Source: Chlamydiota bacterium (GTDB taxonomy: Bacteria > Chlamydiota > Chlamydiia > Chlamydiales > SM23-39). Taken from it: DNA of 64,000 bases. The first letter of the stretch is position 1, and each line of letters starts with the position of its first letter. A model generated the notes under the pieces. It was given only the letters and a program-made list of their open reading frames with translations, was not told the origin of the DNA and searched no databases. The translations under genes and the position numbers were made by a program. Positions 1,692 through 63,872 of this stretch are shown here, piece by piece. The stretch covers positions 8,137 through 72,136 of the forward strand of contig DAHXLK010000017.1 of assembly GCA_027366035.1 (NCBI GenBank), in the 5' to 3' direction.

Positions 1692-1856
1692 GGGACTGTT
1701 GAAATCTCCGCTTTGTAGTTAAAATTTGAGCCTTGCAAAGCCGGTTTGATTTTTTTGAAAGTGACATATCCTGCTAAGGTATAGGCGCTTTTAAAAAGAT
1801 CAAATCCGGGGAAGCAAGGCTCAAATTTTAACCAAATGGGAGATCGAAACAGTCCC
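1692..1856 (+). repeat. Family-A long-palindrome MITE-like element, copy A1
   Basis: gggactgttgaaatctcc...ggagatcgaaacagtccc terminal inverted repeats. Perfect 18-nt inner IR ttaaaatttgagccttgc (1719-1736) / gcaaggctcaaattttaa (1814-1831). Flanked by the direct repeat TTCAT (1687-1691 and 1857-1861). Confidence 0.9.
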
Positions 1857-9458: not shown

Positions 9459-9624
9459 GGGACTGTTGCAATCTTTAGCTTTGCCGTTAAAATTTGAGCC
9501 TTGCAAAGTCGGTTTGATTTTTTTGAAAGCGACATATCCTACTAAGGTATAGGAACTTTTAAAAAAATCAAATTCGAAGAAGCAAGGGTAAAATTTTAAC
9601 TAACCGGGAGATTTCAACAGTCCC
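9459..9624 (+). repeat. Family-A element, copy A2
   Basis: Full-length alignment to A1. Flanked by the perfect direct repeat GTAAA (9454-9458 and 9625-9629). Confidence 0.9.
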
Positions 9625-9656
9625 GTAAATAGTAAAATTTTTATTCCGGTAGCATG

Positions 9657-9822
9657 GGGCTATTTTGATCTTCGCATAGCTTTTAAAATTTGAGCTTTGC
9701 AAGGCCGGTTTGATTTTTTTTTGAAAATGACATATCCTACCAAGGTATAGGCACTTTTAAAAAGATCAAATTCGGGAAAGCAAGGGTAAAATTTTAACCA
9801 AATGGGAGATTTCAACAGTCCC
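9657..9822 (+). repeat. Family-A element, copy A3 (left terminal repeat decayed)
   Basis: Aligns to A1/A2 from ttaaaatttgagctttgc to agatttcaacagtccc. The left end has degenerated to gggctattttgatcttc. It lies 32 bp after A2 and ends 1 nt before the ychF stop codon. Confidence 0.85.
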
Positions 9823-20693: not shown

Positions 20694-20859
20694 GGGACTG
20701 TTTCGATTTCCCATTTGGTTAAAATTTTACCCCTGCTTCTTCGGATTTGACTTTTTTAAAAGTGCCTATACCTTAGTAGGATATGTCACTTTCAAAAAAA
20801 TCAAACCGACTTTGCAAGGCTCAAATTTTAACGGCAAAGCTAAAGATTTCAACAGTCCC
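20694..20859 (-). repeat. Family-A element, copy A4 (inverted orientation)
   Basis: Reverse complement aligns end to end with A2. gggactgtttcgatttcc...aaagatttcaacagtccc. Confidence 0.9.
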
Positions 20860-20899
20860 TTTTTGGGGGCAAGGTCAACATGCCGGGCGCACCTTTGAG

Positions 20900-20987: not shown

Positions 20988-22624
20988 TAATGCTTCCATC
21001 GCTGAACGATCGGGAATATCCTCCCTTTGCTAAAAGCCCGTTTGGTTACCCGGATTCCGGGAGGAGCTTGCCGCCTTTTGTATTCGGCGTTATGGATTTT
21101 GTTTATGAGTCCTTGTACAAGATCTAACGAAAGTCCCCTTTTCTTGCTGATATCCGTAGCGCTTAAAAGCTCTTCGACATAATCTTCTTGCACCGCATCA
21201 ACAGTGGTATATTCGGGAAGGGTATCGATATCTCTTTGTCCGGGTTTTAGCTCTGCAGTTGGCTCTTTATCTAAAATAGTTTGGGGAATCACCTTCCGGC
21301 GGCGATTGATAAATCTAGCCAGCTGATAGACCTGAGCTTTAGAGACATCATTTAAGACTCCAAGGCCGCCACACATATCGCCATAAAGAGTGGTGTAACC
21401 CATCGCCATCTCCGATTTATTGCCGGTACTCAAGACAATCGATCCAAATTTATTGGAAAAGGCCATTAAGATTATCCCCCTGATGCGAGACTGGAGGTTT
21501 TCTTCGGTAATATCCGGTTTATTTTTAGAAAAATGGGGGGCCAAAGTATCCAGAAAAGATTGAAACAGAGTATCTATAGAGAGATAAAGGAGTTTTATCT
21601 CCAAATTTTTTACAAGAAGGAGCGAATCTTCATAGCTCTCTTTAGAAGAGTAACGGGTAGGGAGAAAAAGGCAGGTGATGTTTTCTTTACCCAAGGCTTT
21701 TTCAGCAATGCAAGCAACCAGGGCTGAATCGATACCTCCGGATAAACCAAGTAGGGCTTTTTTAAAGCCTTGCTTGGAAAAATAATCCTTCACTCCTAAA
21801 ACTAGGGCAGAAAAGAGATCTTCGTAGATATCTTGTTCAAAGGCGATGGGAGATAGCCCCTGTTCCGTATCGATAATAAGATAGTCTTCTACAAACCCTT
21901 TGGCAACTTGGAGAAGCTCTCCTTTACTGCTCATATAAAGGCTGTAGCCATCAAAGATAAGCTGGTCATTCGCCCCTACTTGGTTGCAATAAACGATCGG
22001 ACATTTCAAAGTTTTTGCCGTAGCCGCAAAAGTAATGACCCTAGTATCTCGCTTTTGAAAATAGTAAGGGGAGGCGGAGAGGTTGAGGAGGAGGTCGGGG
22101 GGATTTTCTGCCAACTCTTTAACAGGGTCTCTCCTATAGTGGGTAAATAAAAGGTCCCCTCCATGTTGCCACATATCTTCACAGATAAGGATGGCGATTT
22201 TTTTTCCTTTATACTCGAAGATTTTCTGCTCTTTACCCGGTTCAAAATACCTCCTTTCATCAAAGACATCATAAGTAGGGAGGAGCGTCTTGTCCTTATA
22301 ACCTACCAGCCTGCCGTCGATAATAACTGCCGCTGAGTTAAAGGCCCCTTTTTCTTTCCCCTCCGGATTTTTCCTCGCCAGCCCTATCACAACCATAAGA
22401 TCGCTAGATGCTTTACAAATTTTTGGCATAACTTCTTCCATCTTTTCTAAAAAGCTCGGGTAGAAAAGGAGATCTTCAGGAGGGTAGCCGCAAAGGGTAA
22501 GTTCTGAGAAAAGGACAATATCGGCTTTTTGTTTTTTCCCTTTAGCGATGGCCTGAAAAATTTTTTTGACATTGTAGGTAAAGTCGCCGATGATTAAATT
22601 AAGTTGGGCTACAAAAATACGCAT
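20987..22624 (-). CDS. nadE: Glutamine-dependent NAD+ synthetase (CN-hydrolase + NAD synthase domains)
   Basis: 545-aa ORF. N-terminal nitrilase-like domain (FSELTLCGYPPEDL, ICEDMW). C-terminal PP-loop LGLSGGIDSALVA. Confidence 0.95.
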   Translation of the reverse strand: MRIFVAQLNLIIGDFTYNVKKIFQAIAKGKKQKADIVLFSELTLCGYPPEDLLFYPSFLEKMEEVMPKICKASSDLMVVIGLARKNPEGKEKGAFNSAAVIIDGRLVGYKDKTLLPTYDVFDERRYFEPGKEQKIFEYKGKKIAILICEDMWQHGGDLLFTHYRRDPVKELAENPPDLLLNLSASPYYFQKRDTRVITFAATAKTLKCPIVYCNQVGANDQLIFDGYSLYMSSKGELLQVAKGFVEDYLIIDTEQGLSPIAFEQDIYEDLFSALVLGVKDYFSKQGFKKALLGLSGGIDSALVACIAEKALGKENITCLFLPTRYSSKESYEDSLLLVKNLEIKLLYLSIDTLFQSFLDTLAPHFSKNKPDITEENLQSRIRGIILMAFSNKFGSIVLSTGNKSEMAMGYTTLYGDMCGGLGVLNDVSKAQVYQLARFINRRRKVIPQTILDKEPTAELKPGQRDIDTLPEYTTVDAVQEDYVEELLSATDISKKRGLSLDLVQGLINKIHNAEYKRRQAPPGIRVTKRAFSKGRIFPIVQRWKH

Positions 22625-25245: not shown

Positions 25246-25410
25246 GGGACTGTTGAAATCTCCCATTTGGTTAAAATTTTACCCTTGCTTCTCCGAATTT
25301 GATGCTTTTAAAAGTGCTTATACCTTGGTAGGATATGTCGCTTTCAAAAAAATCACACCGGCTTTGAAAGGTTCAAATTTTAACGGAAAAGCGAAGATCG
25401 AAACAGTCTC
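25246..25410 (-). repeat. Family-A element, copy A5 (inverted orientation, right terminus slightly decayed)
   Basis: gggactgttgaaatctcccatttggttaaaattttacccttgc...gaagatcgaaacagtctc aligns to the reverse complement of A2/A3. Confidence 0.88.
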
Positions 25411-25434
25411 AGAATTGCGAAACAAATTAATGGC

Positions 25435-36894: not shown

Positions 36895-36936
36895 GGCTAA
36901 ACGATTTTTTTTGTTAAAGTTTCTAGCTATAATCCT

Positions 36937-37009
36937 GCTGGTGTAGCTCAATTGGTAGAGCACCTGACTTGTAATCAGGCGGTTGAGGGTTCAATTCCTT
37001 TCGCCAGCA
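36937..37009 (+). tRNA. tRNA-Thr (anticodon TGT)
   Basis: Acceptor gctggtg/cgccagc. D-arm agctcaattggtagagc. Anticodon stem cctga/tcagg with loop ctTGTaa. T-loop ttcaatt. Confidence 0.9.
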
Positions 37010-37024
37010 ATCTGTTATCATAAT

Positions 37025-37106
37025 GGGGGTGTCGCATAGTGGCAATTGCAAGAGACTGTAAATCTCTCGCCTTCGGGCTTCGTCAGTTCGAGTCTGACCG
37101 CCCCCA
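37025..37106 (+). tRNA. tRNA-Tyr (anticodon GTA), class II with long variable arm
   Basis: Acceptor gggggtg/cgccccc. Anticodon stem agaga/tctct with loop ctGTAaa. Variable arm cgccttcgggcttcg. T-arm gtcag-ttcgagt-ctgac. The 3' 24 nt overlap the recombinase ORF. Confidence 0.9.
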
Positions 37107-38570
37107 TTCTTCCGGACGATTCTTAAAGTCCAGCATCGTTAAGAACGGCTCTCTCACTGAAACTGAGAGACTTCCGTCCTTCAGTTGCAAGTTCTGAAAT
37201 ACTAAATCTAAAAGTTGACGTTTTTCATCCACTTCAGAACTCTCGAAGATCTTGCGAGCACGGGTTGCCAGGTTCATCACCAGGTTCGCCGTGATATAAA
37301 AGTTTAGATCGGCCTTTTCATGTCGCTTCATCTGATCCATGATCTCAGTTTGGCGACCTTTGTATGTCGTCACCCTTTCAAGGTACATCCGTTCGTCGAT
37401 GAGGCCGTCCAACTTGTCGTCATAGATTTGGTTGAGGCGTTTTTGAATGCGGTCTTGCTCTTTTCGTAGCGCTTGGAGGCTTTCCGAATGGAACAGAGCT
37501 TCTGATTCATGGATGCCCTTGAGATAACGCGTCACATCGGCGATCTGTTGTTCGGACAGAGAGATCCTATCAAAATAGGTTGATAAAGAAGCGATCAACG
37601 GCTCCTCGCGGACGTAGACCCTCTTGCAGTTACCCTTGGCATTCGTGCAGCTGTAGTAGATATAGCGTTCTTTTTTAATCTCTGGGGTTACGATACAGCC
37701 GCAATCGGAGCAGGTAATCAGACCGCGCAATACAAAAGGTTCGCTCACCGATTTGTGTGGTTTCTTATGATATCCATTGGCTACATCTTGCGCTCGTTGG
37801 TAGAGGTCTCGGGAAATGAGTGGTTGGTAGTGATGCTCGACGAGACCATATTTGGTTTGCATCATCCCCGAATAAAACGGTTTTTTGAGGATTTCATCAA
37901 TCACCGATTTAGCGATTTTATGCCCTTTTTTACTTCTGAACCCCATCCGCTCAGCCTCTTCTTGGAGTTTTAGCAGAGAGTAGTTGCCTGTTGCGTATAG
38001 CTCGAACAGTTTCGTGATGAATGGCGCGCGCTCGGGATCTGGAACGATTGTTTTGTCGCCATTTTCCTGCGCCACGTGCATGTAACCAAGAGGGGCTAGC
38101 CCAATCCAAATTCCATTTTTTGCTGCCTGCTCCTTGCTCCGTTTCACGTTATCGCTCAATTGGAGAACGTAACTTCTTGCGAACATTACTCCCATATCCC
38201 ATCTCAGGATGTCGGCGCTATTCGATTTGAGGTTCAAAACTAGTCCTTCGCGCATGAAATGGATTTCGACTTTGCCTTCTTTCCGGAGGTCCTCTAAGAC
38301 GACAGACTCTTTGAAGCTCCTCTGGACGCGATCAATCGTATCTGCGACAAGCGCGACAATTTCCTTGGATTTGTGAATCCGCTCGATGATCTTTTCGAAT
38401 TCCTTCCGTGTTTCCTTAGTCGAAGATTCGGTGATTTTAAAGACTTCCTCTATCTCCAACCCCCTGCGGGAGGCATACTCTCGCAAACGCCGTTCCTGGG
38501 CTGGAATAGACTGTCCTTCTTCTTGCTCTTTACTCGACACTCTGGCAAGCAGTATTGCTTTCATGGCCAA
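37083..38570 (-). CDS. Large serine recombinase (resolvase/invertase N-domain + recombinase domain + zinc ribbon + coiled coil)
   Basis: 495-aa ORF. N-terminal AILLARVSSKEQEEGQSIPAQ with the catalytic Ser. Zinc ribbon CSDCGCIVTPE...YYSCTNAKGNC. The last 8 codons (EEWGRSDSN) lie inside tRNA-Tyr. Confidence 0.9.
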   Translation of the reverse strand: MAMKAILLARVSSKEQEEGQSIPAQERRLREYASRRGLEIEEVFKITESSTKETRKEFEKIIERIHKSKEIVALVADTIDRVQRSFKESVVLEDLRKEGKVEIHFMREGLVLNLKSNSADILRWDMGVMFARSYVLQLSDNVKRSKEQAAKNGIWIGLAPLGYMHVAQENGDKTIVPDPERAPFITKLFELYATGNYSLLKLQEEAERMGFRSKKGHKIAKSVIDEILKKPFYSGMMQTKYGLVEHHYQPLISRDLYQRAQDVANGYHKKPHKSVSEPFVLRGLITCSDCGCIVTPEIKKERYIYYSCTNAKGNCKRVYVREEPLIASLSTYFDRISLSEQQIADVTRYLKGIHESEALFHSESLQALRKEQDRIQKRLNQIYDDKLDGLIDERMYLERVTTYKGRQTEIMDQMKRHEKADLNFYITANLVMNLATRARKIFESSEVDEKRQLLDLVFQNLQLKDGSLSVSVREPFLTMLDFKNRPEEWGRSDSN

Positions 38571-38603
38571 ACCTTTATTACTTCTTTTCGGGTCGCTATT
38601 ATA

Positions 38604-39194
38604 TCACTTTTCCTCTGACAAGTCCTCGACTAAATTTTGCGGAACAAAGCCAATTTGTGGTTCTTGGCTCTTTCTTTCAGACTGTAGTACCCTAAGCTCA
38701 GCAAGGGATCTGAAAAGGATTTTTTCCAAAGAAATTTCATACCTTGAGAGTAACGCCAATTCGTCTCCCTGGTATCCCCCAAGGACTTCGATAATCCCGC
38801 TACTATCGAATCTGCGTGAGGCATGGTTGATCAACATCGATTCCATCTGCGTGACCCTTGATAGTCGCCAAGCGGCGGCTAAAGCCCTTTCACAGAATAA
38901 CTGCTCAAGGAGTCCTTCAGGGATGAATTGTTCGTAAAATTCCGTCTTCAAAGCTTCAAATTCTTTTTTAGATTCTCCCTCCAACACTACTTGTCTGCTG
39001 AATACCCCATGTTTTAGAGGGTTCTTGGCAAGGGCTGACTTGCCTTCGATAGATTTTGGACCAGTTGATCGTTGGGCGTTCAGGCGGTTTGAATCTAACT
39101 GTTTTTGTGATGCCATATTTTGCTCCTGTTTCTCATTTCCGATTTCTGGATTTTCTATAGGAATCGGAAAATCGGAAAGGTGTGGATTGTTCAT
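38604..39194 (-). CDS. Hypothetical protein (196 aa) of the island
   Basis: ORF with a 4-nt overlap to the primase gene. The motif NRLNAQRSTGPKSIEGKSALAKNPLKHGVFS recurs, to my recollection, in uncharacterised integrase-linked proteins. No function can be assigned. Confidence 0.55.
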   Translation of the reverse strand: MNNPHLSDFPIPIENPEIGNEKQEQNMASQKQLDSNRLNAQRSTGPKSIEGKSALAKNPLKHGVFSRQVVLEGESKKEFEALKTEFYEQFIPEGLLEQLFCERALAAAWRLSRVTQMESMLINHASRRFDSSGIIEVLGGYQGDELALLSRYEISLEKILFRSLAELRVLQSERKSQEPQIGFVPQNLVEDLSEEK

Positions 39195-40909
39195 ATAAGT
39201 CCTTGTTCTTTAGCCTTTTTCTTTCTTGTTTCAACTTGAGATTTGCTCAACCCTGTGCGGCTAGCCGTCTGTTCGATCGTTAACCCCTCTTTAAGGGCCT
39301 GAGCTACCTTTTCGACTTCAGAATCAGTCTTTGGCTCAGCGATCTCCCAAAGCCAAAGCCCGTCGTCCTCTTCTGTTAGGCGGACTTGGAAAGGCGCAGC
39401 ATCGTCACCAGCAAAATGTCGTGTTTTTTCGAAGACGACCTCAAACGCAGCTCCTTGATCAGCGCAATGTCCAGGAGGCTGTTTTAAAGTAATGACGCAA
39501 TCGAGGATATCTTCCCTTTTGCTGGTGCCGCGTTGTTGACCCGTTTTTGCCGCATGGTGGATGAAGAGTACGGATTTCCCTTTTTTCCGAAGTTCTAGCG
39601 CCCAATCTTGCACGGGTTGCCAACTTTCAGCTTCATTTTCGATCCCACTGCGAAACAGGGTAGACACGTTGTCGATGATAATGAGATCGCTGTCAGCAAT
39701 CAAATCCTCCAAGATATCCCGCTCTTCTTTGATCGAAAGGTCTGGCATTGCGCCTTCTTGCAAATCGGGCGTGATCAGCCTGAGATAAGATGGATCTGGA
39801 AGTTTTAGGTCTTCTGAGAGAGAAATCCGTTGCAAGCGCTCCTGCATGGCCCCAGCGGGCATTTCCCCGTCAATGTATAAGACCTTTCTTGGCCTTGGCG
39901 CATTCCACTTTAGGAAAGACCCGCCAGTGGCAACAGCATAGGCAATCCCTAGAGCTACGTGAGTTTTTCCCACACCCCGTTTTGCGTACAAAAGGCATAA
40001 CCCTTGCGATGGAAGAAAGGGGGCAAGGATCATTTCCCTTTTCGGCAATTTCATTTGTAAAAACTCTTCTAGCGTGACTGCCCTGATTTTCGCTTTTGGG
40101 GTAGATGGGGAATAATCTGTCGTGGCAGCTAAAAGTTTAAGGAGAGAGTCTGTAGTGTTGCCTTCCGCAAGCCAATCGCTAACGTCCTTGCCGTGCGATT
40201 CTTGATATTCGATCCCAGGGAGATCTATTACGCGGAGGCGTTTGACTTTGCCGTAGAGAGTTTTACATAACAAATTTTTCCGTTCGATCCCAGTTTTGTC
40301 CATATCATAAAGAACGGCGACATCACAATTTCGTAGAACGGCAGTGAAATCGTCGGGCCACTTGAGTGATTCAGGAGTAGTGGTCGCCACAAGGCCGTAT
40401 TGGGCCAATTTGTCAGCATCCTTTTCTCCTTCGACCAGAAATACTGTGTTGCCCTCATGGGTCGCTTGTAAAACCTCCGGAAGTCGATAGAGGATTTTCC
40501 GGCACCCCTCAAGATTCCTCACGATTTCCCCTTTTTCGTTGAATCTTTCCCAGTAAAAGCTTTTTAGTTTTCCATTAAACCCAGGCTCGATTCGGATTTT
40601 TGAAAAGAGCGCTTTGCCTTGCTCGTCGCGATAGGGATATTCTATTCGCCTTTTGGCTGTTTCAGCCTCTTTACCGAGTTTCACGGGGAACAAGTCAGTG
40701 ATTGCAATACCTAGGGAAGCGCAAATGTTTTCAGGAACGCATCCAGCAAAACACTTAACGAGGATTTTTCCGTCATCGCCCTCGTTAATGGAAAGACTCG
40801 GATTAGAGTCGTCGTGGGAAGGGCATCGCAAGCTGTATCCATGTCCCGATTTCCGTGCTTCAAATCCTGTTTTTCTTTCGACTAGGCGAATAAATTCTTC
40901 GATCATCAT
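39191..40909 (-). CDS. Primase (CHC2 zinc finger + TOPRIM) fused to RecA-like AAA ATPase (RepA/AAA_25-type) with C-terminal HTH
   Basis: 572-aa ORF. Zinc finger CPSHDDSNPSLS...KCFAGC. TOPRIM VFLVEGEKDADKL and VLYDMDKTG. Walker A AKRGVGKTH. Walker B LIIIDNV. C-terminal LTIEQTASRTGLSKSQV. Confidence 0.85.
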   Translation of the reverse strand: MMIEEFIRLVERKTGFEARKSGHGYSLRCPSHDDSNPSLSINEGDDGKILVKCFAGCVPENICASLGIAITDLFPVKLGKEAETAKRRIEYPYRDEQGKALFSKIRIEPGFNGKLKSFYWERFNEKGEIVRNLEGCRKILYRLPEVLQATHEGNTVFLVEGEKDADKLAQYGLVATTTPESLKWPDDFTAVLRNCDVAVLYDMDKTGIERKNLLCKTLYGKVKRLRVIDLPGIEYQESHGKDVSDWLAEGNTTDSLLKLLAATTDYSPSTPKAKIRAVTLEEFLQMKLPKREMILAPFLPSQGLCLLYAKRGVGKTHVALGIAYAVATGGSFLKWNAPRPRKVLYIDGEMPAGAMQERLQRISLSEDLKLPDPSYLRLITPDLQEGAMPDLSIKEERDILEDLIADSDLIIIDNVSTLFRSGIENEAESWQPVQDWALELRKKGKSVLFIHHAAKTGQQRGTSKREDILDCVITLKQPPGHCADQGAAFEVVFEKTRHFAGDDAAPFQVRLTEEDDGLWLWEIAEPKTDSEVEKVAQALKEGLTIEQTASRTGLSKSQVETRKKKAKEQGLI

Positions 40910-40930
40910 TATTACCTCTTTATTAATTTG

Positions 40931-41200
40931 TTACGTCACATTCCCGAGTACTTTTTCTGCTTTTTCGCACACGACTTTTTCAATTTCTCTGCTCAACTCT
41001 TGGGTGGTGGGATGGCAAATTGTTTGACTTCCTTCCCCGATCCTCTTTGTGGGGTAAGTGATTCTGTAGCCAGAGCCGTCCCTTTTGCGATGGACTCCAA
41101 TTGAACTGACATAAAAACGTCCATCTAGCTCAACGCATGCGAACGCCATCAGCCCGTCTTGCGGGTGGATGGGAAGGATTTCCACTTTTGTGACTGCCAT
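40931..41200 (-). CDS. SpoVG-like small DNA/RNA-binding protein
   Basis: 89-aa ORF. The pattern V.KVEILPIHPQDGLMAFACVELDGRFYVSSIGVHRKRDGSGYRITYPTKR......ICHP parallels the SpoVG fold signature (V.V....G.lkAfasv.ld..f.v..i.v.....g.fv.mPs.r........HP). Confidence 0.45.
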   Translation of the reverse strand: MAVTKVEILPIHPQDGLMAFACVELDGRFYVSSIGVHRKRDGSGYRITYPTKRIGEGSQTICHPTTQELSREIEKVVCEKAEKVLGNVT

Positions 41201-41362
41201 AAAGCTCCGGATTGTTACGTCTGTCTATTCGAAGCAGCAGGTCAAAAAACTGTCCTAATCGATCTTCCGTAGAAGCCACGATAGGGGAAAGGGCAGACCT
41301 GTGCTTTTTCATACCCCCAAAATAATGGATCTGTTGCTCATGTGAGCGCATTTGCACGCAAG

Positions 41363-41402
41363 TGCGACTGGATCAGAATTTTTTGAGATAAAATGCGACT
41401 GG
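41363..41402. promoter_or_regulatory. Pair of 9-bp direct repeats TGCGACTGG spaced 31 bp apart in the divergent intergenic region of the island
   Basis: tgcgactgg at 41363-41371 and 41394-41402, about 80-115 bp upstream of the 475-aa gene start. Possible operator or iteron. Confidence 0.3.
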
Positions 41403-41479
41403 TGTATGCTAGAGTTAGACAGCAACCGATACTTTTTAGCCTGAGGCGCGATCTAAAAATGTAATAAGGAAGTGAAAAA

Positions 41480-42907
41480 ATGAGTCTCGCAGTCAGTCAA
41501 TCTTTGCTTTTGCTGAATTGTCTAGAACGATTCGAAAAGCAGTCTAAAGAAATCCAACATAGGAATGAGCTTGTCGAGTTATTTTGCACTCAGGTCATTC
41601 CTTTCCTCACCGAGAACGGACTCCTTGATGCTCTACGTAAGAATTGGGCGCGTCAACGGGATCAGATGAATTTAAGGGTGAGGGAAACTGAAGCCAAAGC
41701 CCTAGAAGAAATACAAGCAACGGCTGATGAAATACGATTAGCCGTCGGCGTTTGCTCAGATGAAGTTATTAAGGCAAAGCAAGAGTTGATCCAACGCCTT
41801 ATATCAGGTGAAGAGAAATGGTATGGCACGCCGCTTTATCGAATCCTCTTTGGTGAACTGAAGCAGCTTCTTCAATGTTTATTAGAAGCTGGGCATGAGC
41901 ACATTTGCGTCAAATATGCGAAATTAGGAGTTCGTAGGATCTATGTTCAGCGAGAGAATCCAATCAAACGATGGATGATTATTCGCAATGGAGGACAGAA
42001 CGGAATTCCTCTCACTGCAAAAGAAGCTGCAAATGCCAAGAAAAAGGGCGAGAAGGGTCTTGTTTCCTTTTACTCCGATCTCGAGTTGGTTGAAGAAACT
42101 TTCATCGAGGAATTCTCATTCGCGCCAAGCGTTCTGGACGCGTATGAGGCAATGGATTCCGTACATTGGGATCGTTTTCAAGATCCAGCCGTCGTCTGGT
42201 GGTATTTTGAAACGGCCTTTTGGTATTGGAAGACAACGGAGTTTTATTTCAACGAGATCCTGCGTCCGAAAAATGGCAATGATCTTGGAAAGCACTTTCA
42301 GACAACTTGTGAACAAGCGACATGGCGTGAAATCGCTGATGCAAGGGATAGAGTTAACGACGCAAGCAGGATTCCTGTGATTTTTACAACAGGGTTTTTT
42401 AGAACAGGGCTTCGTACGTTGGCTAACGCTATTGCTGTTTATCTTTCTCAAGATCCGACAACTTTGGAAGCCTCGCCTCACAAAATAAATGATTCCCTAA
42501 CGCATTTTGAGCTTGTTCTCGATGGCAATGAATTATGGGTACATGTCTCTTTTGAGAATCAAGCAATCGAAAAATTCTTTGTCCAAAAATTCAACGAAGG
42601 GCCAGATCTTACTGGATCCCGACTTCACCAATTTGCAAAAGGACTTGTAGAAGATCCCGTTGAAGGAACTAAGAAAGCAAAATTAGTTCGAAAATGGGAA
42701 TCTGCGTCAAAGCATATTAATCGTTTGAAATTACCGATGCTTCTAAAGCAAAAGTTTTTTGCTAAATCGTATAGTTCTCATTTCGATTTTAAGGGGGCAA
42801 GAATATCGCTAGGGAGCGATCTGAATGAAGTTAGGCTGATCCTAAAAGATTTGAGGCAGAATCATTTAAAATCTAAGGAACGGGTTGAAAATGGGAAAGA
42901 TGGATGA
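41480..42907 (+). CDS. Hypothetical protein (475 aa), first gene of the R-M-containing cassette
   Basis: Long ORF with an AAGGAAG SD-like sequence upstream. Its 3' end overlaps the methyltransferase ORF by 23 nt. I recognise no domain. Confidence 0.6.
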   Translation: MSLAVSQSLLLLNCLERFEKQSKEIQHRNELVELFCTQVIPFLTENGLLDALRKNWARQRDQMNLRVRETEAKALEEIQATADEIRLAVGVCSDEVIKAKQELIQRLISGEEKWYGTPLYRILFGELKQLLQCLLEAGHEHICVKYAKLGVRRIYVQRENPIKRWMIIRNGGQNGIPLTAKEAANAKKKGEKGLVSFYSDLELVEETFIEEFSFAPSVLDAYEAMDSVHWDRFQDPAVVWWYFETAFWYWKTTEFYFNEILRPKNGNDLGKHFQTTCEQATWREIADARDRVNDASRIPVIFTTGFFRTGLRTLANAIAVYLSQDPTTLEASPHKINDSLTHFELVLDGNELWVHVSFENQAIEKFFVQKFNEGPDLTGSRLHQFAKGLVEDPVEGTKKAKLVRKWESASKHINRLKLPMLLKQKFFAKSYSSHFDFKGARISLGSDLNEVRLILKDLRQNHLKSKERVENGKDG

Positions 42908-43922
42908 GAAGAGAAACACGCCGGACAAGAGAATGAAGGTCGTCGATCTTTTTTGCGGATGTGGAGGATTGTCTTTAGGATTTCAAAACGCTGGCTTTGA
43001 AATATTAGCGGCCTATGATGCATGGGATACTGCTATAGAATGCTATAAAGAGAATTTTCATCATCCTGCTTCTTGTTTAGATCTTTCAGCAGTGGATCAT
43101 GCGATCGCCGAGATCAGACAGTGGAATTGTGATATTATCATAGGAGGCCCGCCATGTCAGGATTTTTCTCATGCTGGGAAACGGCAAGAAGGCGCTCGGG
43201 CTAATCTTACTACATGCTTTGCCAAGATTGTGTCTGCGATAAAGCCCGCATGGTTTGTAATGGAAAACGTTGATAGGGCGATTACAAGCGCTTCTTATGC
43301 ACAAGCAAGGAATATTTTTCTGAACGCTGGATATGGGATTTCAGAATTAGTCCTTGATGCTAGCTTTTGTGGCGCTCCCCAGAAGAGGAAACGGTTATTT
43401 TGCATAGGAAGATTAGGAGAAGAAAACGAATTTATAGTAGAACGCATTCAAAAAAGAATGAGCAAGAAACCGATGACAGTTCGTGAACATTTAGGGAGTG
43501 AGCTTGGAATAGAGCATTACTATAGGCACCCGAGAAACTACAATCGGAGAGCAGTATTCTCAATTGATGAACCTTCTCCAACTATTAGAGGCGTAAATCG
43601 GCCCATACCTATGGGGTATCCAGGACATGCGCAAGATTCTGCTCCTATTGATTCTTTGATTCGTCCTTTGACTTCTCTGGAAAGGGCTAGAATTCAAACA
43701 TTTCCAGTCGATTATAAATGGGTAGGATCAAAAACTGAACAGGAAACCATGATAGGCAATGCGGTTCCAGTAAAGTTGGCTGAGTTCGTTGGGCGATCCA
43801 TATTAGACGAGAATTGCAATCAAGGGAACGCGAGAAGATTATCTTTTAGCTCATCTCCTGAAAACCATATCGTAACTTTTGCTAAATCAGCACGGTGCGA
43901 ACAGCTATCCTTCAGGCTTTAG
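42885..43922 (+). CDS. DNA (cytosine-5)-methyltransferase
   Basis: Motif I DLFCGCGG, IV GGPPCQDFS, VI ENV, VIII QKRKRLF, X GNAVP. The true start may be the Met at 42900 or 42933 (MKVVDLFCGCGG). Confidence 0.93.
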   Translation: MKMGKMDEKRNTPDKRMKVVDLFCGCGGLSLGFQNAGFEILAAYDAWDTAIECYKENFHHPASCLDLSAVDHAIAEIRQWNCDIIIGGPPCQDFSHAGKRQEGARANLTTCFAKIVSAIKPAWFVMENVDRAITSASYAQARNIFLNAGYGISELVLDASFCGAPQKRKRLFCIGRLGEENEFIVERIQKRMSKKPMTVREHLGSELGIEHYYRHPRNYNRRAVFSIDEPSPTIRGVNRPIPMGYPGHAQDSAPIDSLIRPLTSLERARIQTFPVDYKWVGSKTEQETMIGNAVPVKLAEFVGRSILDENCNQGNARRLSFSSSPENHIVTFAKSARCEQLSFRL

Positions 43923-43928
43923 AGCAAT

Positions 43929-45050
43929 ATGACAGACTTTAAAGATACAGATCCTAAATTATACGGCATTAATCATTCAAATCGTGATGGAGATGATCTG
44001 TGGGGGAAAAACCAATTTAATAGCACGTTTCCTGTTGCTCTTATGTGTTTTATGCGGGATCAACAGGTTCCTGCTGCATATTTGTCTATCACAAAGAAAC
44101 TGAACGTATCTGTTTCTGAAATATCATTCGACCAAGTTTTAGATACAAATATTCCGAACAAGGATCTTTATTTTCTTTTTGAGGGGAAATTTGATCCTTA
44201 TCAAGATTTTGCGTACGATGACATAGGATCAATTGATCTTGTTGTAACTGAGAGCGTTCGTGATTCAGCAGCTCGATCGTACGGATCAATGCCTGGTCGT
44301 TTTTTAAGACCGCTGGAGATAAAACTCACGGTCGTACCCGATCATACTACGCATAAAGAGCTAGAGCGACTTTGGGGACCCGAACTTGTTATCCGACCTG
44401 CTACCACAATCTACTGCGCACTAGGAATCGCCCACTCTTGCAAGACAGCAAAAGTCCTAGGAAAGGTCAGAGCCATTTTTGAGCCTCTTTGCCATTCTAT
44501 AAAGGATTGGGATAACGAACATGAAATTAATGCAAGGGTTGACGACATTTTAGAGTCCTTGGATCGGTTTCAATCTGAAATGTGGCAACTGCAAAAACCT
44601 ATGTTGATGCAGCCTATCTGGAAAACGGAAGGGAAAAGTCCTATTTTGATGAAGAATGCGTTTGATATTTTTATCTGGAGCGATTTTGCTTTATGCCGAT
44701 TATTTCTCGATTTGTCGAGAGGAGGAGCCGAACGGAAAGAGGTCAACCGATTTGTAAGAAGCGCTGCACGTCTTGCAAGATTTTTATATGAAGTTTCTAC
44801 TAGGGGCAAAGTGAACGTGAAGAACATTTATACTGAAATGGCGCACAATAGGCAGACGGATAAGGAATTCGCAGTCAGCGGGAAAAAAACGCATTCTTAT
44901 ATGAGCTCAAAATATTTGTCGAACCCAAGAATCCAGAGAGATGCATTACGTCACATTATCCTCAATGGAGGGGAGCAAAAATTAAATCCCGAAAGGCGCT
45001 TTGACCAGACAGTCTATTTTACGACCAAACACATTTTTGAAAGCTCGTAA
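43929..45050 (+). CDS. Putative type II restriction endonuclease (PD-ExK type), cognate to the adjacent methyltransferase
   Basis: 373-aa ORF starting 6 nt after the MTase and abutting vsr. Candidate catalytic motif SIDLVV...PLEIKLT (D...ExK). Specificity is not determinable. Confidence 0.6.
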   Translation: MTDFKDTDPKLYGINHSNRDGDDLWGKNQFNSTFPVALMCFMRDQQVPAAYLSITKKLNVSVSEISFDQVLDTNIPNKDLYFLFEGKFDPYQDFAYDDIGSIDLVVTESVRDSAARSYGSMPGRFLRPLEIKLTVVPDHTTHKELERLWGPELVIRPATTIYCALGIAHSCKTAKVLGKVRAIFEPLCHSIKDWDNEHEINARVDDILESLDRFQSEMWQLQKPMLMQPIWKTEGKSPILMKNAFDIFIWSDFALCRLFLDLSRGGAERKEVNRFVRSAARLARFLYEVSTRGKVNVKNIYTEMAHNRQTDKEFAVSGKKTHSYMSSKYLSNPRIQRDALRHIILNGGEQKLNPERRFDQTVYFTTKHIFESS

Positions 45051-45506
45051 ATGGATGTCTTTTCCAAGAAGAAAAGAAGCGAAATCATGTCAAAAGTCAG
45101 GGGGAAGGACACCGCCCCTGAGATCAAAGTACGGAAATCTCTTTTCGCCCTGGGTTTTAGATACAGGCTAAATGTTCGAAAGATCCCTGGGAAGCCGGAT
45201 ATCGTGCTGCGTAAATACGAAGCGTTGATATTCGTCCATGGTTGTTTCTGGCACGGCCATCATTGTCGGATTGGTAATTTACCGGTAAGTAATAGCGCCT
45301 ACTGGCAACGCAAAATGGAAAGGAACAGAGCCAGAGACAAGATGAACCTTAAGCGTTTAAGGATGATGGGTTGGAGGGTCTTAACGGTTTGGGAATGCGC
45401 CTTAGCCGGTAAGGGGAGATTGCCGTCGGATCTCCTATCTAGGAAGCTGAATACATGGATCGTGGGAAGCAGACAGGTCGGTAATATTCAAGGGTTAAAG
45501 AATTGA
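45051..45506 (+). CDS. vsr: Very-short-patch repair endonuclease Vsr
   Basis: 151-aa ORF. DTAPEIKVRKSLFALGFRYRLNVRKIPGKPDIVLRKYEALIFVHGCFWHGHHC is the Vsr signature. Confidence 0.92.
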   Translation: MDVFSKKKRSEIMSKVRGKDTAPEIKVRKSLFALGFRYRLNVRKIPGKPDIVLRKYEALIFVHGCFWHGHHCRIGNLPVSNSAYWQRKMERNRARDKMNLKRLRMMGWRVLTVWECALAGKGRLPSDLLSRKLNTWIVGSRQVGNIQGLKN

Positions 45507-45553
45507 TTGGTTTGTTTGCGAGTCTGAAATATTAATTCATCTTCTTTTTAATT

Positions 45554-46303
45554 ATGCGCGCGTTTTATTCTTTTAGCATGAAAAAAATTAGTCGTTCAAA
45601 AATTGATTTGTTTTTGTCTTGCCCTTGTTGTTTTTATTTGGATCAGCTTTGTAAGGTCTCTCGTCCTTCCATACCAAAGTTTACGATCAACGATGCTGTT
45701 GATGGGTTGCTCAAGAAAGAATTTGATGTTTATCGTAATGCAGGCAAGCCTCATCCGTTGATGAGCCAATTCGCAATCGATGCGGTTCCCTTTCAACACC
45801 CAGATATTGAAAAATGGCGTAAAAATAAAATTGGCATCCAAGTTTCACATGAAGCGACCTCGTTCTTGGTTTACGGGGCTATTGACGATGTCTGGGTTGA
45901 TAAAACTGGGACGCTCTACATTGTGGATTACAAGGCCACCAGCATTAAGGATATTCCGACTCTGGATGGGCGAGATGCCTATAAAAGGCAAATAGAAGTT
46001 TACCAGTGGCTTTTTCGTCAAAATGGCTTCAAAGTGTCCAACACAGGGTATTTCGTCTACTGCAATGGGAAAAAAAATGCAGAATCCTTCAACGGACGGA
46101 TTGATTTTGATATGCAGATTTTGTCTTATGAGGGCGATGTTTCGTGGGTAGAGCCGACGCTGTTTAAGATCCGTTCGGCCATGGATGCACAGGAAATACC
46201 TGTTTCTTCAGAGCATTGCGAATATTGCGCTTTCCGCGAAGAAGGTGTAGCTGTACTACGCGAGAGAACTCAATCCGTTTTTCCCGTAAGTTTGACAACC
46301 TAA
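45554..46303 (+). CDS. PD-(D/E)XK nuclease, Cas4/RecB-like with Cys cluster
   Basis: 249-aa ORF. GAIDDVWVDKTGTLYIVDYKAT (D...DYK). N-terminal SCPCCFY and C-terminal EHCEYCAF cysteines resemble a Cas4-type Fe-S cluster. Confidence 0.7.
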   Translation: MRAFYSFSMKKISRSKIDLFLSCPCCFYLDQLCKVSRPSIPKFTINDAVDGLLKKEFDVYRNAGKPHPLMSQFAIDAVPFQHPDIEKWRKNKIGIQVSHEATSFLVYGAIDDVWVDKTGTLYIVDYKATSIKDIPTLDGRDAYKRQIEVYQWLFRQNGFKVSNTGYFVYCNGKKNAESFNGRIDFDMQILSYEGDVSWVEPTLFKIRSAMDAQEIPVSSEHCEYCAFREEGVAVLRERTQSVFPVSLTT

Positions 46304-47016: not shown

Positions 47017-47050
47017 CCAGATTTCAACAGTCCCCTTTTGGAGGCAAGAT
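47017..47050. repeat. Isolated right end of a family-A element plus conserved flank
   Basis: ccagatttcaacagtcccc ttttggaggcaagatc matches the right end and flank of copy A4 (aaagatttcaacagtccc tttttgggggcaaggtc, 20842-20876). The rest of the element is absent. Confidence 0.7.
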
Positions 47051-60033: not shown

Positions 60034-60198
60034 GGGATTGTTGAAATCTCCGCTTTGCCGTTAAAATTTGAGTCTTGCAAAGCCGGTTTAATTTTTTTGA
60101 AAGTGACATATCCTACTAAGGTATAGGCTCTTTTAAAAAGATCAAATCCGAGGAAGCAAGAGTAAAATTTTAATCAAACGGAAGATCGAAACAATCTT
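60034..60198 (+). repeat. Family-A element, copy A6 (termini slightly decayed)
   Basis: gggattgttgaaatctccgctttgccgttaaaatttgagtcttgc...ggaagatcgaaacaatctt. Starts at the nucleotide after the rpoC TAA. Confidence 0.88.
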
Positions 60199-60260
60199 AG
60201 TATAGCTATTTTCCAAAAAATCAAATCTGGTGAAACTTGGATCTCACAAGGAATCCTGTT

Positions 60261-60293
60261 AAAAAAAAGGACTCTGTAGATACAAAGTCCTTT
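60261..60293 (-). terminator. Rho-independent terminator downstream of the small basic ORF
   Basis: The minus strand reads aaaggact-ttgtatctacag-agtccttt followed by ttttt (8-bp perfect stem, 12-nt loop, T-run). It lies about 27 nt after the ORF stop. Confidence 0.7.
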
Positions 60294-60591: not shown

Positions 60592-60758
60592 GGGACTGTT
60601 GAAATCTCCGCTTTGCCGTTAAAATTTGGGCCTTGCTTCCCCGGATTTTATCTTTTTAAAAGTGCCTATACCTTAGTAGAGGATATGTCACTTTCAAAAA
60701 AATCAAACCGACTTTGCAAGGCTCAAATTTTAACCAAATGGGAGGTCGAAACAGTCCC
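60592..60758. repeat. Family-A element, copy A7: outer arms in plus orientation, inner core (60637-60715) inverted
   Basis: The outer parts match A1 collinearly (gggactgttgaaatctccgctttgccgttaaaatttgggccttgc ... gcaaggctcaaattttaaccaaatgggaggtcgaaacagtccc). The segment between the 18-nt inner inverted repeats matches the reverse complement of the A1 core. Confidence 0.88.
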
Positions 60759-63710: not shown

Positions 63711-63872
63711 GGGACTGTTTCGATCTTCCATTTGGTTAAAATTTTACCCTTGCTTCCCCGGAGTTGATCTTTTTCAAGCGCCTATACCTTAGTAGGATAT
63801 GTCACTTTCAAAAAAATCAAACCGGCTTTGCTAGGCTCAGATTGTAACCAAATGGGAGATCGAAACAGCCCC
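63711..63872 (-). repeat. Family-A element, copy A8 (core in minus orientation; mosaic subterminal modules)
   Basis: gggactgtttcgatcttccatttggttaaaattttacccttgc...gctaggctcagattgtaaccaaatgggagatcgaaacagcccc. Both subterminal 9-mers are of the ccaaatggg type. Confidence 0.85.

Follow-up and report, generated by a model that had tools for sequence, protein, structure and literature searches.

Template switching at short inverted repeats is known to yield both homogenization of the two arms and inversion of the spacer that they enclose (PMC8604942). In the yeast study, nine of ten spacer inversions were located at inverted repeats whose arms were already perfect (PMC8604942), and inversions of hairpin loops have been seen in bacterial RNA genes (PMC8794818). 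The spacers documented in these studies measure 2-8 nt, compared with 79 nt in the case described here (PMC8604942, PMC8794818). A second point of comparison is the Correia element (CREE) of Neisseria, for which inversion in place between inverted repeats is reported in a review (PMC10969869) that cites Elbeyioglu et al. (2017); Siddique et al. (2011) is likewise cited here through that review.

We describe here a family of nested palindromic repeats in a 64,000-nt stretch of chlamydial DNA (the window), one copy of which, A7, carries its core in the opposite orientation to that of its own arms. A first-pass annotation had drawn attention to this copy and had offered two readings of it: an invertible segment acting as a DNA-inversion switch, or template switching during replication of the palindrome.

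Anatomy of the repeat family

A profile search of the window defines eight full copies of about 165 bp (162-167 bp; Table 1). From the outside inwards, each copy consists of a TIR, a subterminal module, an 18-nt inner inverted repeat and a core of 77-79 nt, followed by the mirror-image modules. The TIRs, GGGACTGTT..../....AACAGTCCC, bound both ends in every copy and exist in two variants, a (TGAAAT) and b (TTCGAT), which are combined among the copies as a/b, b/a, a/a and b/b. The inner repeats are imperfect in most copies, a GAGCC-type repeat on the left being paired with a TACCC-type repeat on the right. This pattern lies far above chance, since the 18-nt TIR motif occurs ten times in the window and the 18-nt inner-repeat motif 16 times, compared with 0.06 and 0.16 occurrences expected from shuffled sequences. 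All 16 inner-repeat matches of the window fall within the eight full copies, with no solo inner unit, and the extra 17.6 kb of the source contig (84.6 kb in all) contain neither further copies nor solo inner units. The sample of copies is n = 8, drawn from a single assembly of a single sample.

Compared with its own reverse complement, a whole element shows 65-77% identity, and on folding it forms a single hairpin (-47 to -90 kcal/mol on the strand carrying the core in its forward orientation). The repeat is thus a nested quasi-palindrome that forms one long hairpin. When native cores and cores flipped in silico are folded side by side, stability moves between the strands and gives no signal that discriminates between the two orientations.

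Table 1. Coordinates of the repeat copies, the parts of A7, related elements and neighbouring mobile features (window positions unless another locus is named)
Feature	Position	Strand	Description
A1	1692-1856	+	Canonical core orientation; both inner repeats of GAGCC type (18/18)
A2	9459-9624	+	Canonical; perfect 5-bp TSD GTAAA
A3	9656-9822	+	Canonical, more diverged; 31 nt downstream of A2
A4	20694-20859	-	Canonical; reverse-oriented insertion
A5	25246-25411	-	Canonical interior; TIR variants a and b exchanged compared with A1, A4 and A6
A6	60034-60199	+	Canonical; begins directly after the rpoC stop codon
A7	60592-60758	+	Arms canonical, core reversed
A7 left TIR	60592-60609	+	GGGACTGTTGAAATCTCC, a type; exact match to the family TIR
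A7 L-type subterminal module	60610-60618	+	GCTTTGCCG; canonical left-arm orientation; same as in A2, A4 and A6
A7 left inner inverted repeat	60619-60636	+	TTAAAATTTGGGCCTTGC; GAGCC type with one A>G change
A7 core	60637-60715	-	79 nt; reverse-complemented with respect to the A7 arms
A7 right inner inverted repeat	60716-60733	+	GCAAGGCTCAAATTTTAA; GAGCC type as in A1
A7 R-type subterminal module	60734-60741	+	CCAAATGG; canonical right-arm orientation
A7 right TIR	60742-60758	+	GAGGTCGAAACAGTCCC, b type
A8	63711-63872	-	Mosaic; both outer arms (subterminal module and TIR) of R/b type, remainder canonical
Solo TIR remnant	47019-47034	-	16 nt, AGATTTCAACAGTCCC
Related element, L018	21827-21990 (L018)		
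Related element, L063	4285-4450 (L063)		
Related element, L061	3031-3192 (L061)		
Related element, L079	17034-17214 (L079)		
Related element, L017	664-814 (L017)		
IS1634-family IS	141-2036 (L091)		About 8 kb upstream of the window on the same contig; perfect 18-bp IRs CCCGAGTTTGACACCTGA
Island: large serine recombinase	37083-38570	-	495 aa; Resolvase, Recombinase and Zn-ribbon domains
Island: primase/helicase-like protein	39191-40909		
Island: C5 DNA methyltransferase	42885-43922		
Island: putative restriction enzyme	43929-45050		
Island: Vsr-like endonuclease	45051-45506		
Island: PD-(D/E)XK-like protein	45554-46303		

The core of A7 is inverted relative to its own arms

The first-pass annotation had described A7 as a copy whose arms are collinear with those of A1 and whose core is the near-exact reverse complement of the A1 core. 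On re-reading, the coordinates and sequences of both copies are as it gave them, and its description of their arrangement stands. Global alignment in both orientations gives 73 identical positions out of 79 (92%) between the A1 core (1737-1813) and the reverse complement of the A7 core, compared with 54 out of 81 (67%) when the two cores are read directly; the latter value is high because the core is itself a quasi-palindrome. The A7 core measures 79 nt, compared with 77 nt in A1, and carries the conserved centre of the family, GACATATCC..GGTATAGGC, on its minus strand.

Because palindromic symmetry could mislead such a comparison, orientation was scored only at 29 informative columns, which are invariant in A2, A4, A5 and A6 and distinguish the forward from the reverse-complement reading. 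In A7, the forward state is seen at each of the four informative sites in the left arm and its inner repeat and at each of the three in the right arm. The copy is reverse at 20 of the 21 informative core sites (the remaining one fits neither orientation) and at the informative site of the right inner repeat. The flip is thus bounded by the 18-nt inner repeats, as had been proposed, and the junctions lie at exactly the positions that they occupy in canonical copies. Counts of differences give the same picture: the left arm of A7 differs at three positions from the left arms of A1 and A6, compared with 7-15 from reverse-complemented right arms; its right arm differs at a single position from that of A1, compared with 5-12 from reverse-complemented left arms; and its core shows 6-12 differences from the other copies when flipped (six from A1, seven from A4 and from A6, eight from A8), compared with 25-30 when collinear. 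A1 is therefore the nearest relative of A7 in the left arm, the core and the right arm alike. A pair of GAGCC-type inner repeats, left and right, is moreover confined to A1 and A7, with 18 of 18 matching positions in A1 and 17 of 18 in A7, in line with the earlier description, and the core end CCGGGGAA is common to A1, A7 and A8.

Departures from the canonical layout are also seen in A1 and A8. A1 is forward at every informative site except that of the right inner repeat, which has been converted to the left type, giving the perfect 18/18 pair. A8, which had been called a mosaic, indeed carries subterminal modules of the CCAAATGG type on both sides: it is reverse solely in the left subterminal module, and its left outer arm (TIR variant b and R module) corresponds to the right one in reverse complement. 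The conversion of the A1 inner repeat and the duplication of the A8 outer arm are most likely signatures of copying from one arm to the other.

The A7 arrangement in two assemblies

The window is part of the MEGAHIT k=141 contig k141_863314 (84,645 bp; ENA ERZ27233573), in which contig positions correspond to window positions plus 9,981, with no mismatch over the stretch compared. As the source is a short-read metagenome assembly, and as an independent Logan assembly (SRR33270664) breaks at every copy, which indicates that these repeats are hard to assemble, we considered whether the palindrome of A7 could have been traversed wrongly or whether halves of different copies could have been stitched together. 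Such an artefact is unlikely, and we put its probability very low, because several observations hold the copy together. From its L module to its R module, A7 spans 132 nt, which fits within a single 141-mer, and its two inner repeats share exact runs of only 10 nt and 7 nt, far below any k used. SNPs private to A7 lie in the centre of the core as well as in the left inner repeat and right TIR, and chain its junctions to one another. Moreover, the right junction is present as a read-derived 31-mer in the second assembler: the Logan contig L086 begins at window position 60705 with AAACCGACTTTGCAAGGCTCAAATTTTAACC. This 31-mer runs from the end of the reversed core through the right inner repeat to the opening two bases (CC) of the R module, and is exactly the first one not shared with A4. 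This contig extends 11 nt past the inner repeat into the end of the reversed core, with no branch. Finally, the same junction between reversed core end, inner repeat and R module recurs in A8 with different SNPs.

Exact-protein look-ups for other strains or samples returned only the source ENA contig and broken Logan contigs of one run. It should be noted for annotation and assembly in general that nested palindromes of this kind break short-read assemblies, and that mosaic copies may be mistaken for switches.

Relatives and ancestral polarity

Relatives of the element were sought by profile and TIR searches in about 1.7 Mb of chlamydial MAG loci (reached via RpoC) and in one metagenome scan. 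Related elements are found in other chlamydial MAGs: in L018, L082, L083 and L084, which form one family, and in L063, L061, L079 and L017. They share the nested plan, with a TIR of the GAGSYAGTTGCAAAACTC form, subterminal modules resembling GCTTYGG and CCRAATGG, inner repeats that are unequal between left and right, and conserved asymmetric centres (GACATATCC..GGTATAGGC, CACATACTC..GAGTAGGGC and similar). Four-bp TSDs flank the elements of L018 (GATA) and L083 (GTTC). The same TIR also bounds short elements with unrelated interiors (L078, 2339-2420; L036, about 20988-21060), whereas a TIR-like match in L019 was rejected as a chance match between rplJ and rplL. The element thus belongs to a superfamily that is spread among environmental Chlamydiota. 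On the other hand, core-motif scans for the window's own family found no member in GTDB species genomes or JGI metagenomes, a broader pattern recovered three copies, all of a sister family, and a scan of viral contigs and a BLAST search of a plasmid collection with the element were both empty.

The relatives were oriented by their arms and the centre was scored afterwards. In five lineages the centre ACATA..TAGG has a constant orientation with respect to the inner repeats, which are of GATGATTTTGG type on the left and of CAAAAGSGCG type on the right; in L079 the strand was set by the arms and the centre then agreed, which is an independent check. As seven window copies and five other lineages are canonical, the canonical arrangement of core and arms is ancestral and has been stable over deep divergence, and A7 is a rare derived state. 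The anatomy of the element, the inversion in A7, its derived polarity and its kinship with A1 can all be read directly from the alignments. The conservation of an asymmetric centre across distant families hints at a possible orientation-sensitive function.

Insertion sites and genomic context

All copies are intergenic, and only spurious ORFs cross the eight of them. Perfect 5-bp TSDs flank A1 (TTCAT) and A2, those of the other window copies being decayed or absent. The case of A1 is particularly instructive. Its TSD, which reads ATGAA on the strand of the genes, interrupts an ATGA that was ancestrally shared by the malQ stop codon and the start codon of the following gene. From the flanks at 1689-1691 and 1857-1861, the empty site reconstructs to ...CTATGAAATAC..., with the malQ stop TGA overlapping the downstream ATG; since the insertion, the stop has come from one copy of the TSD and the start from the other. 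As the empty site restores an intact stop/start overlap, this reconstruction is good evidence for true transposition, and it illustrates how such insertions can split overlapping stop and start codons without damage to either gene. GGAGAT, at the end of A1, precedes the start codon of this downstream gene by about 14 nt and is a candidate for its ribosome-binding site.

No Rfam family matches the element at gathering threshold; at a permissive E-value, Rfam gave only tRNAs and sub-threshold models of long hairpins (plant miRNA precursors), so that a known RNA family was set aside. Since it is non-coding, intergenic, multi-copy, bounded by TIRs, associated with TSDs and without an Rfam family, the element behaves as a MITE-like mobile repeat. 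A cognate autonomous IS with matching ends, one of the marks of a MITE, is absent from the 84.6-kb contig. The sole transposase on this contig is of the IS1634 family (547 aa; NF033559, 367 bits). Its IS was examined as a parent and, despite a promising internal 10-mer, AGTTGCAAAA, rejected, since its true ends (Table 1) bear no significant similarity to those of the MITE. This IS adjoins a gene for a 676-aa NEL-domain protein (a T3SS effector-type E3 ligase).

The window carries the T3SS genes cdsU, cdsV and copN, the malQ gene, the ychF-ribF-truB-rbfA-infB-nusA-rpsA genes and the tuf-secE-nusG-rplKAJL-rpoBC genes, and its RpoC is at most 84% identical to those of Chlamydiales and Parachlamydiales MAGs. 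Gene content and RpoC identity together assign the window to an uncultured Chlamydiota lineage for which GTDB contains no species-level representative. Copies of the element are clustered at certain intergenic sites: the tandem pair A2 and A3, both in the same orientation, lies between a 140-aa ORF and ychF, and the convergent genes rpoC and lepB enclose A6 and A7, with 393 nt between the two. Between A6 and A7, a terminator-like hairpin with a 12-bp stem followed by a T-run is located on the lepB strand (60266-60293, minus strand). An apparent genomic island (36936-46303; Table 1) lies beside tRNA-Thr and tRNA-Tyr; no direct repeats of at least 16 nt that could serve as att repeats are found at its edges. 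The solo TIR remnant, at about 47.0 kb, sits near the far edge of this island, and the flank outside it (CTTTTGGAGGCAAGATCA) is similar to the A4 flank at 20860-20880 (TTTTTGGGGGCAAGGTCA), which suggests a second short repeat or a preferred target.

Origin of the inversion

With moderate confidence, we read A7 as the product of a one-off template-switch inversion in an A1-type copy, that is, as a fixed mutational fossil and not a programmed switch. The ancestral element would have had the layout TIR, L module (GCTTTGCCG), GAGCC-type repeat, forward core, TACCC-type repeat, R module (CCAAATGG) and TIR, and the immediate ancestor of A7 would have been an A1-like copy in which the inner repeats were already identical. 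Reciprocal exchange within the inner repeats of a canonical GAGCC/TACCC copy cannot yield GAGCC on both sides; given an A1-like parent, a flip of the core alone suffices to produce A7. During replication, the nascent strand may have jumped to the complementary strand in one arm, copied the spacer backwards and returned in the other arm, so that the 77-79-nt spacer between the 18-nt inner repeats would have been inverted in place in a single event. The same template switching could homogenize arms, giving the perfect inner repeats of A1 and a left outer arm copied from the right one in A8. The spacer of A7 is found as a reverse complement with arms and length preserved, and it is derived with respect to an un-inverted ancestor, as in template-switch inversions. 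We favour template switching because arm homogenization together with spacer inversion is its documented footprint; of the two readings offered by the first-pass annotation, it is the one in better agreement with the data; that template switching was the mechanism, and that it acted in one event, is our inference. Spacer inversions on a scale of about 79 nt have reportedly been seen in E. coli plasmid work.

A serious rival, which we consider rather doubtful, is recombination instead of a replication error, either a RecA-type crossover between the 18-nt inner repeats or ectopic conversion from a copy lying antiparallel. Its product would be identical to that of template switching. Nearby copies in both orientations offer possible donors (A6 at 393 bp from A7, with A2 and A3 likewise only 31 bp apart), and the mosaicism at three nested junctions (TIR variant/module, module/inner repeat and inner repeat/core) is what exchange between copies is expected to leave. 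However, efficient RecA recombination usually needs more than 18 bp of homology, so that the inner repeats fall below the usual minimum, and a loop of 79 bp is very stiff for a physical crossover; as to conversion, no donor core is closer to that of A7 than the A1 core. It is hardly credible, on the other hand, that the inner repeats and core constitute an independent mobile unit that was inserted, or reinserted, in the opposite direction within the outer palindrome. The nested architecture with its two sets of inverted repeats would accommodate such a unit, as would the unrelated interiors that the superfamily TIR bounds in L078 and L036. Yet all 16 inner-repeat matches reside in full copies, with none solo in the window or in the extra 17.6 kb, the A7 junctions coincide exactly with the canonical positions, and a single orientation is fixed across five other lineages.

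The reading of A7 as a genuine reversible switch, with the inner repeats as recombination sites and a core that flips appreciably and thereby alters an orientation-dependent signal, was the one emphasized by the first-pass annotation. The architecture is indeed that of an inverton, a segment bounded by inverted repeats; the centre is conserved and asymmetric across distant chlamydial families, so that its orientation could matter; and in-place inversion has been reported for the Correia elements of Neisseria (review PMC10969869, citing Elbeyioglu et al. 2017). Nevertheless, an active switch is not supported, and we regard this reading as improbable. Seven window copies and all the relatives share one core orientation, against a single window copy with the other (7:1); under free switching, a count of at most one flipped copy in eight has p = 0.035. 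About ten substitutions or indels separate A7 from its closest canonical relative, A1, so that the flip is not demonstrably recent. A scan of A6 and A7 for sigma-70-like promoters and intrinsic-terminator-like sites found neither. The search for an invertase or recombinase that the annotation had suggested found no small serine or tyrosine invertase near A7 in the window, whose sole recombinase is the large serine integrase of the island, 22 kb away. A spacer of 79 bp is moreover very short for synapsis by an invertase, and the inner repeats of most copies are imperfect. From the ORF maps, the core strand expected in transcripts of the neighbouring genes is the minus strand in A1, A2, A3 and A5 and the plus strand in A6, A7 and A8, a 4:3 split without bias. 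The Logan contig is unbranched at the A7 inner repeat, which is weak evidence because assembly prunes minor variants. For the family-wide version of this reading, in which the core is a recurrently flipping module driven by the hairpin or by a recombinase and the centre ACATA..TAGG is an orientation-dependent signal, we see an equally slim prospect. Were recurrent flipping real, an obligate intracellular bacterium would carry reversible micro-switches in the form of chlamydial MITEs dispersed over its operon junctions, and a reversible flip would add a new regulatory device to a lineage from which few are known; the evidence points away from this.

Comparison with known systems

No prior description of the family was found in the literature, in Rfam, among plasmids or among viral contigs, and this MITE-like superfamily of environmental Chlamydiota is apparently undescribed. 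By its architecture and setting, the Correia element (CREE/NEMIS) of Neisseria appears to be the nearest biological object. Both are hairpin MITEs of about 100-200 bp, located at intergenic sites and operon junctions and co-transcribed with their neighbours, and both show subtypes defined by alternative variants of the left and right ends. The likeness to this element of another phylum is functional and architectural only, with no demonstrated sequence homology. The two also differ in what inverts: in CREE it is the element between its terminal repeats, which changes promoters borne by the ends, whereas here it is the inner core, and no promoter was detected. The target of CREE is TA, compared with the 5-bp TSD of the present family.

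What A7 has in common with invertons of the Hin/Gin/Fim type and with shufflons is a DNA segment that lies reversed between inverted repeats. These systems differ from it in that here no cognate recombinase was found, no promoter is seen, the segment measures only 79 bp, the substrates are dispersed in multiple copies and the orientation is conserved. The Rickettsia palindromic elements and the QMITEs of Coxiella are likewise small palindromic repeats that have proliferated in an obligate intracellular lineage and are tolerated at gene junctions. We found no sequence relationship with them, and they differ from the present family in its nested double-inverted-repeat layout and in the conservation of its centre across chlamydial lineages.

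As regards mechanism, the nearest known process would be the inversion of an inverted-repeat spacer or loop by template switching. In quasipalindrome mutagenesis of the Ripley type (PMC8604942, PMC8794818), as in A7, the spacer becomes its exact reverse complement with arms and length kept. The arms are already perfect or near-perfect in both, and arm homogenization accompanies the inversion, as seen here in A1 and A8. The differences lie in the spacer, which measures a few nucleotides in the documented natural cases and 79 nt in A7, and in the substrate, which here is a multi-copy mobile element, so that templates from other copies are possible as well. The value of the finding is modest but real: the palindrome-templated mutation that A7 suggests has been documented mostly for spacers of a few nucleotides, and this family offers a clean natural case in which inversion of a long (79-nt) spacer and arm homogenization occur together. 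A mutational process that is already known, at work in a new MITE-like family, best explains the flip of A7.
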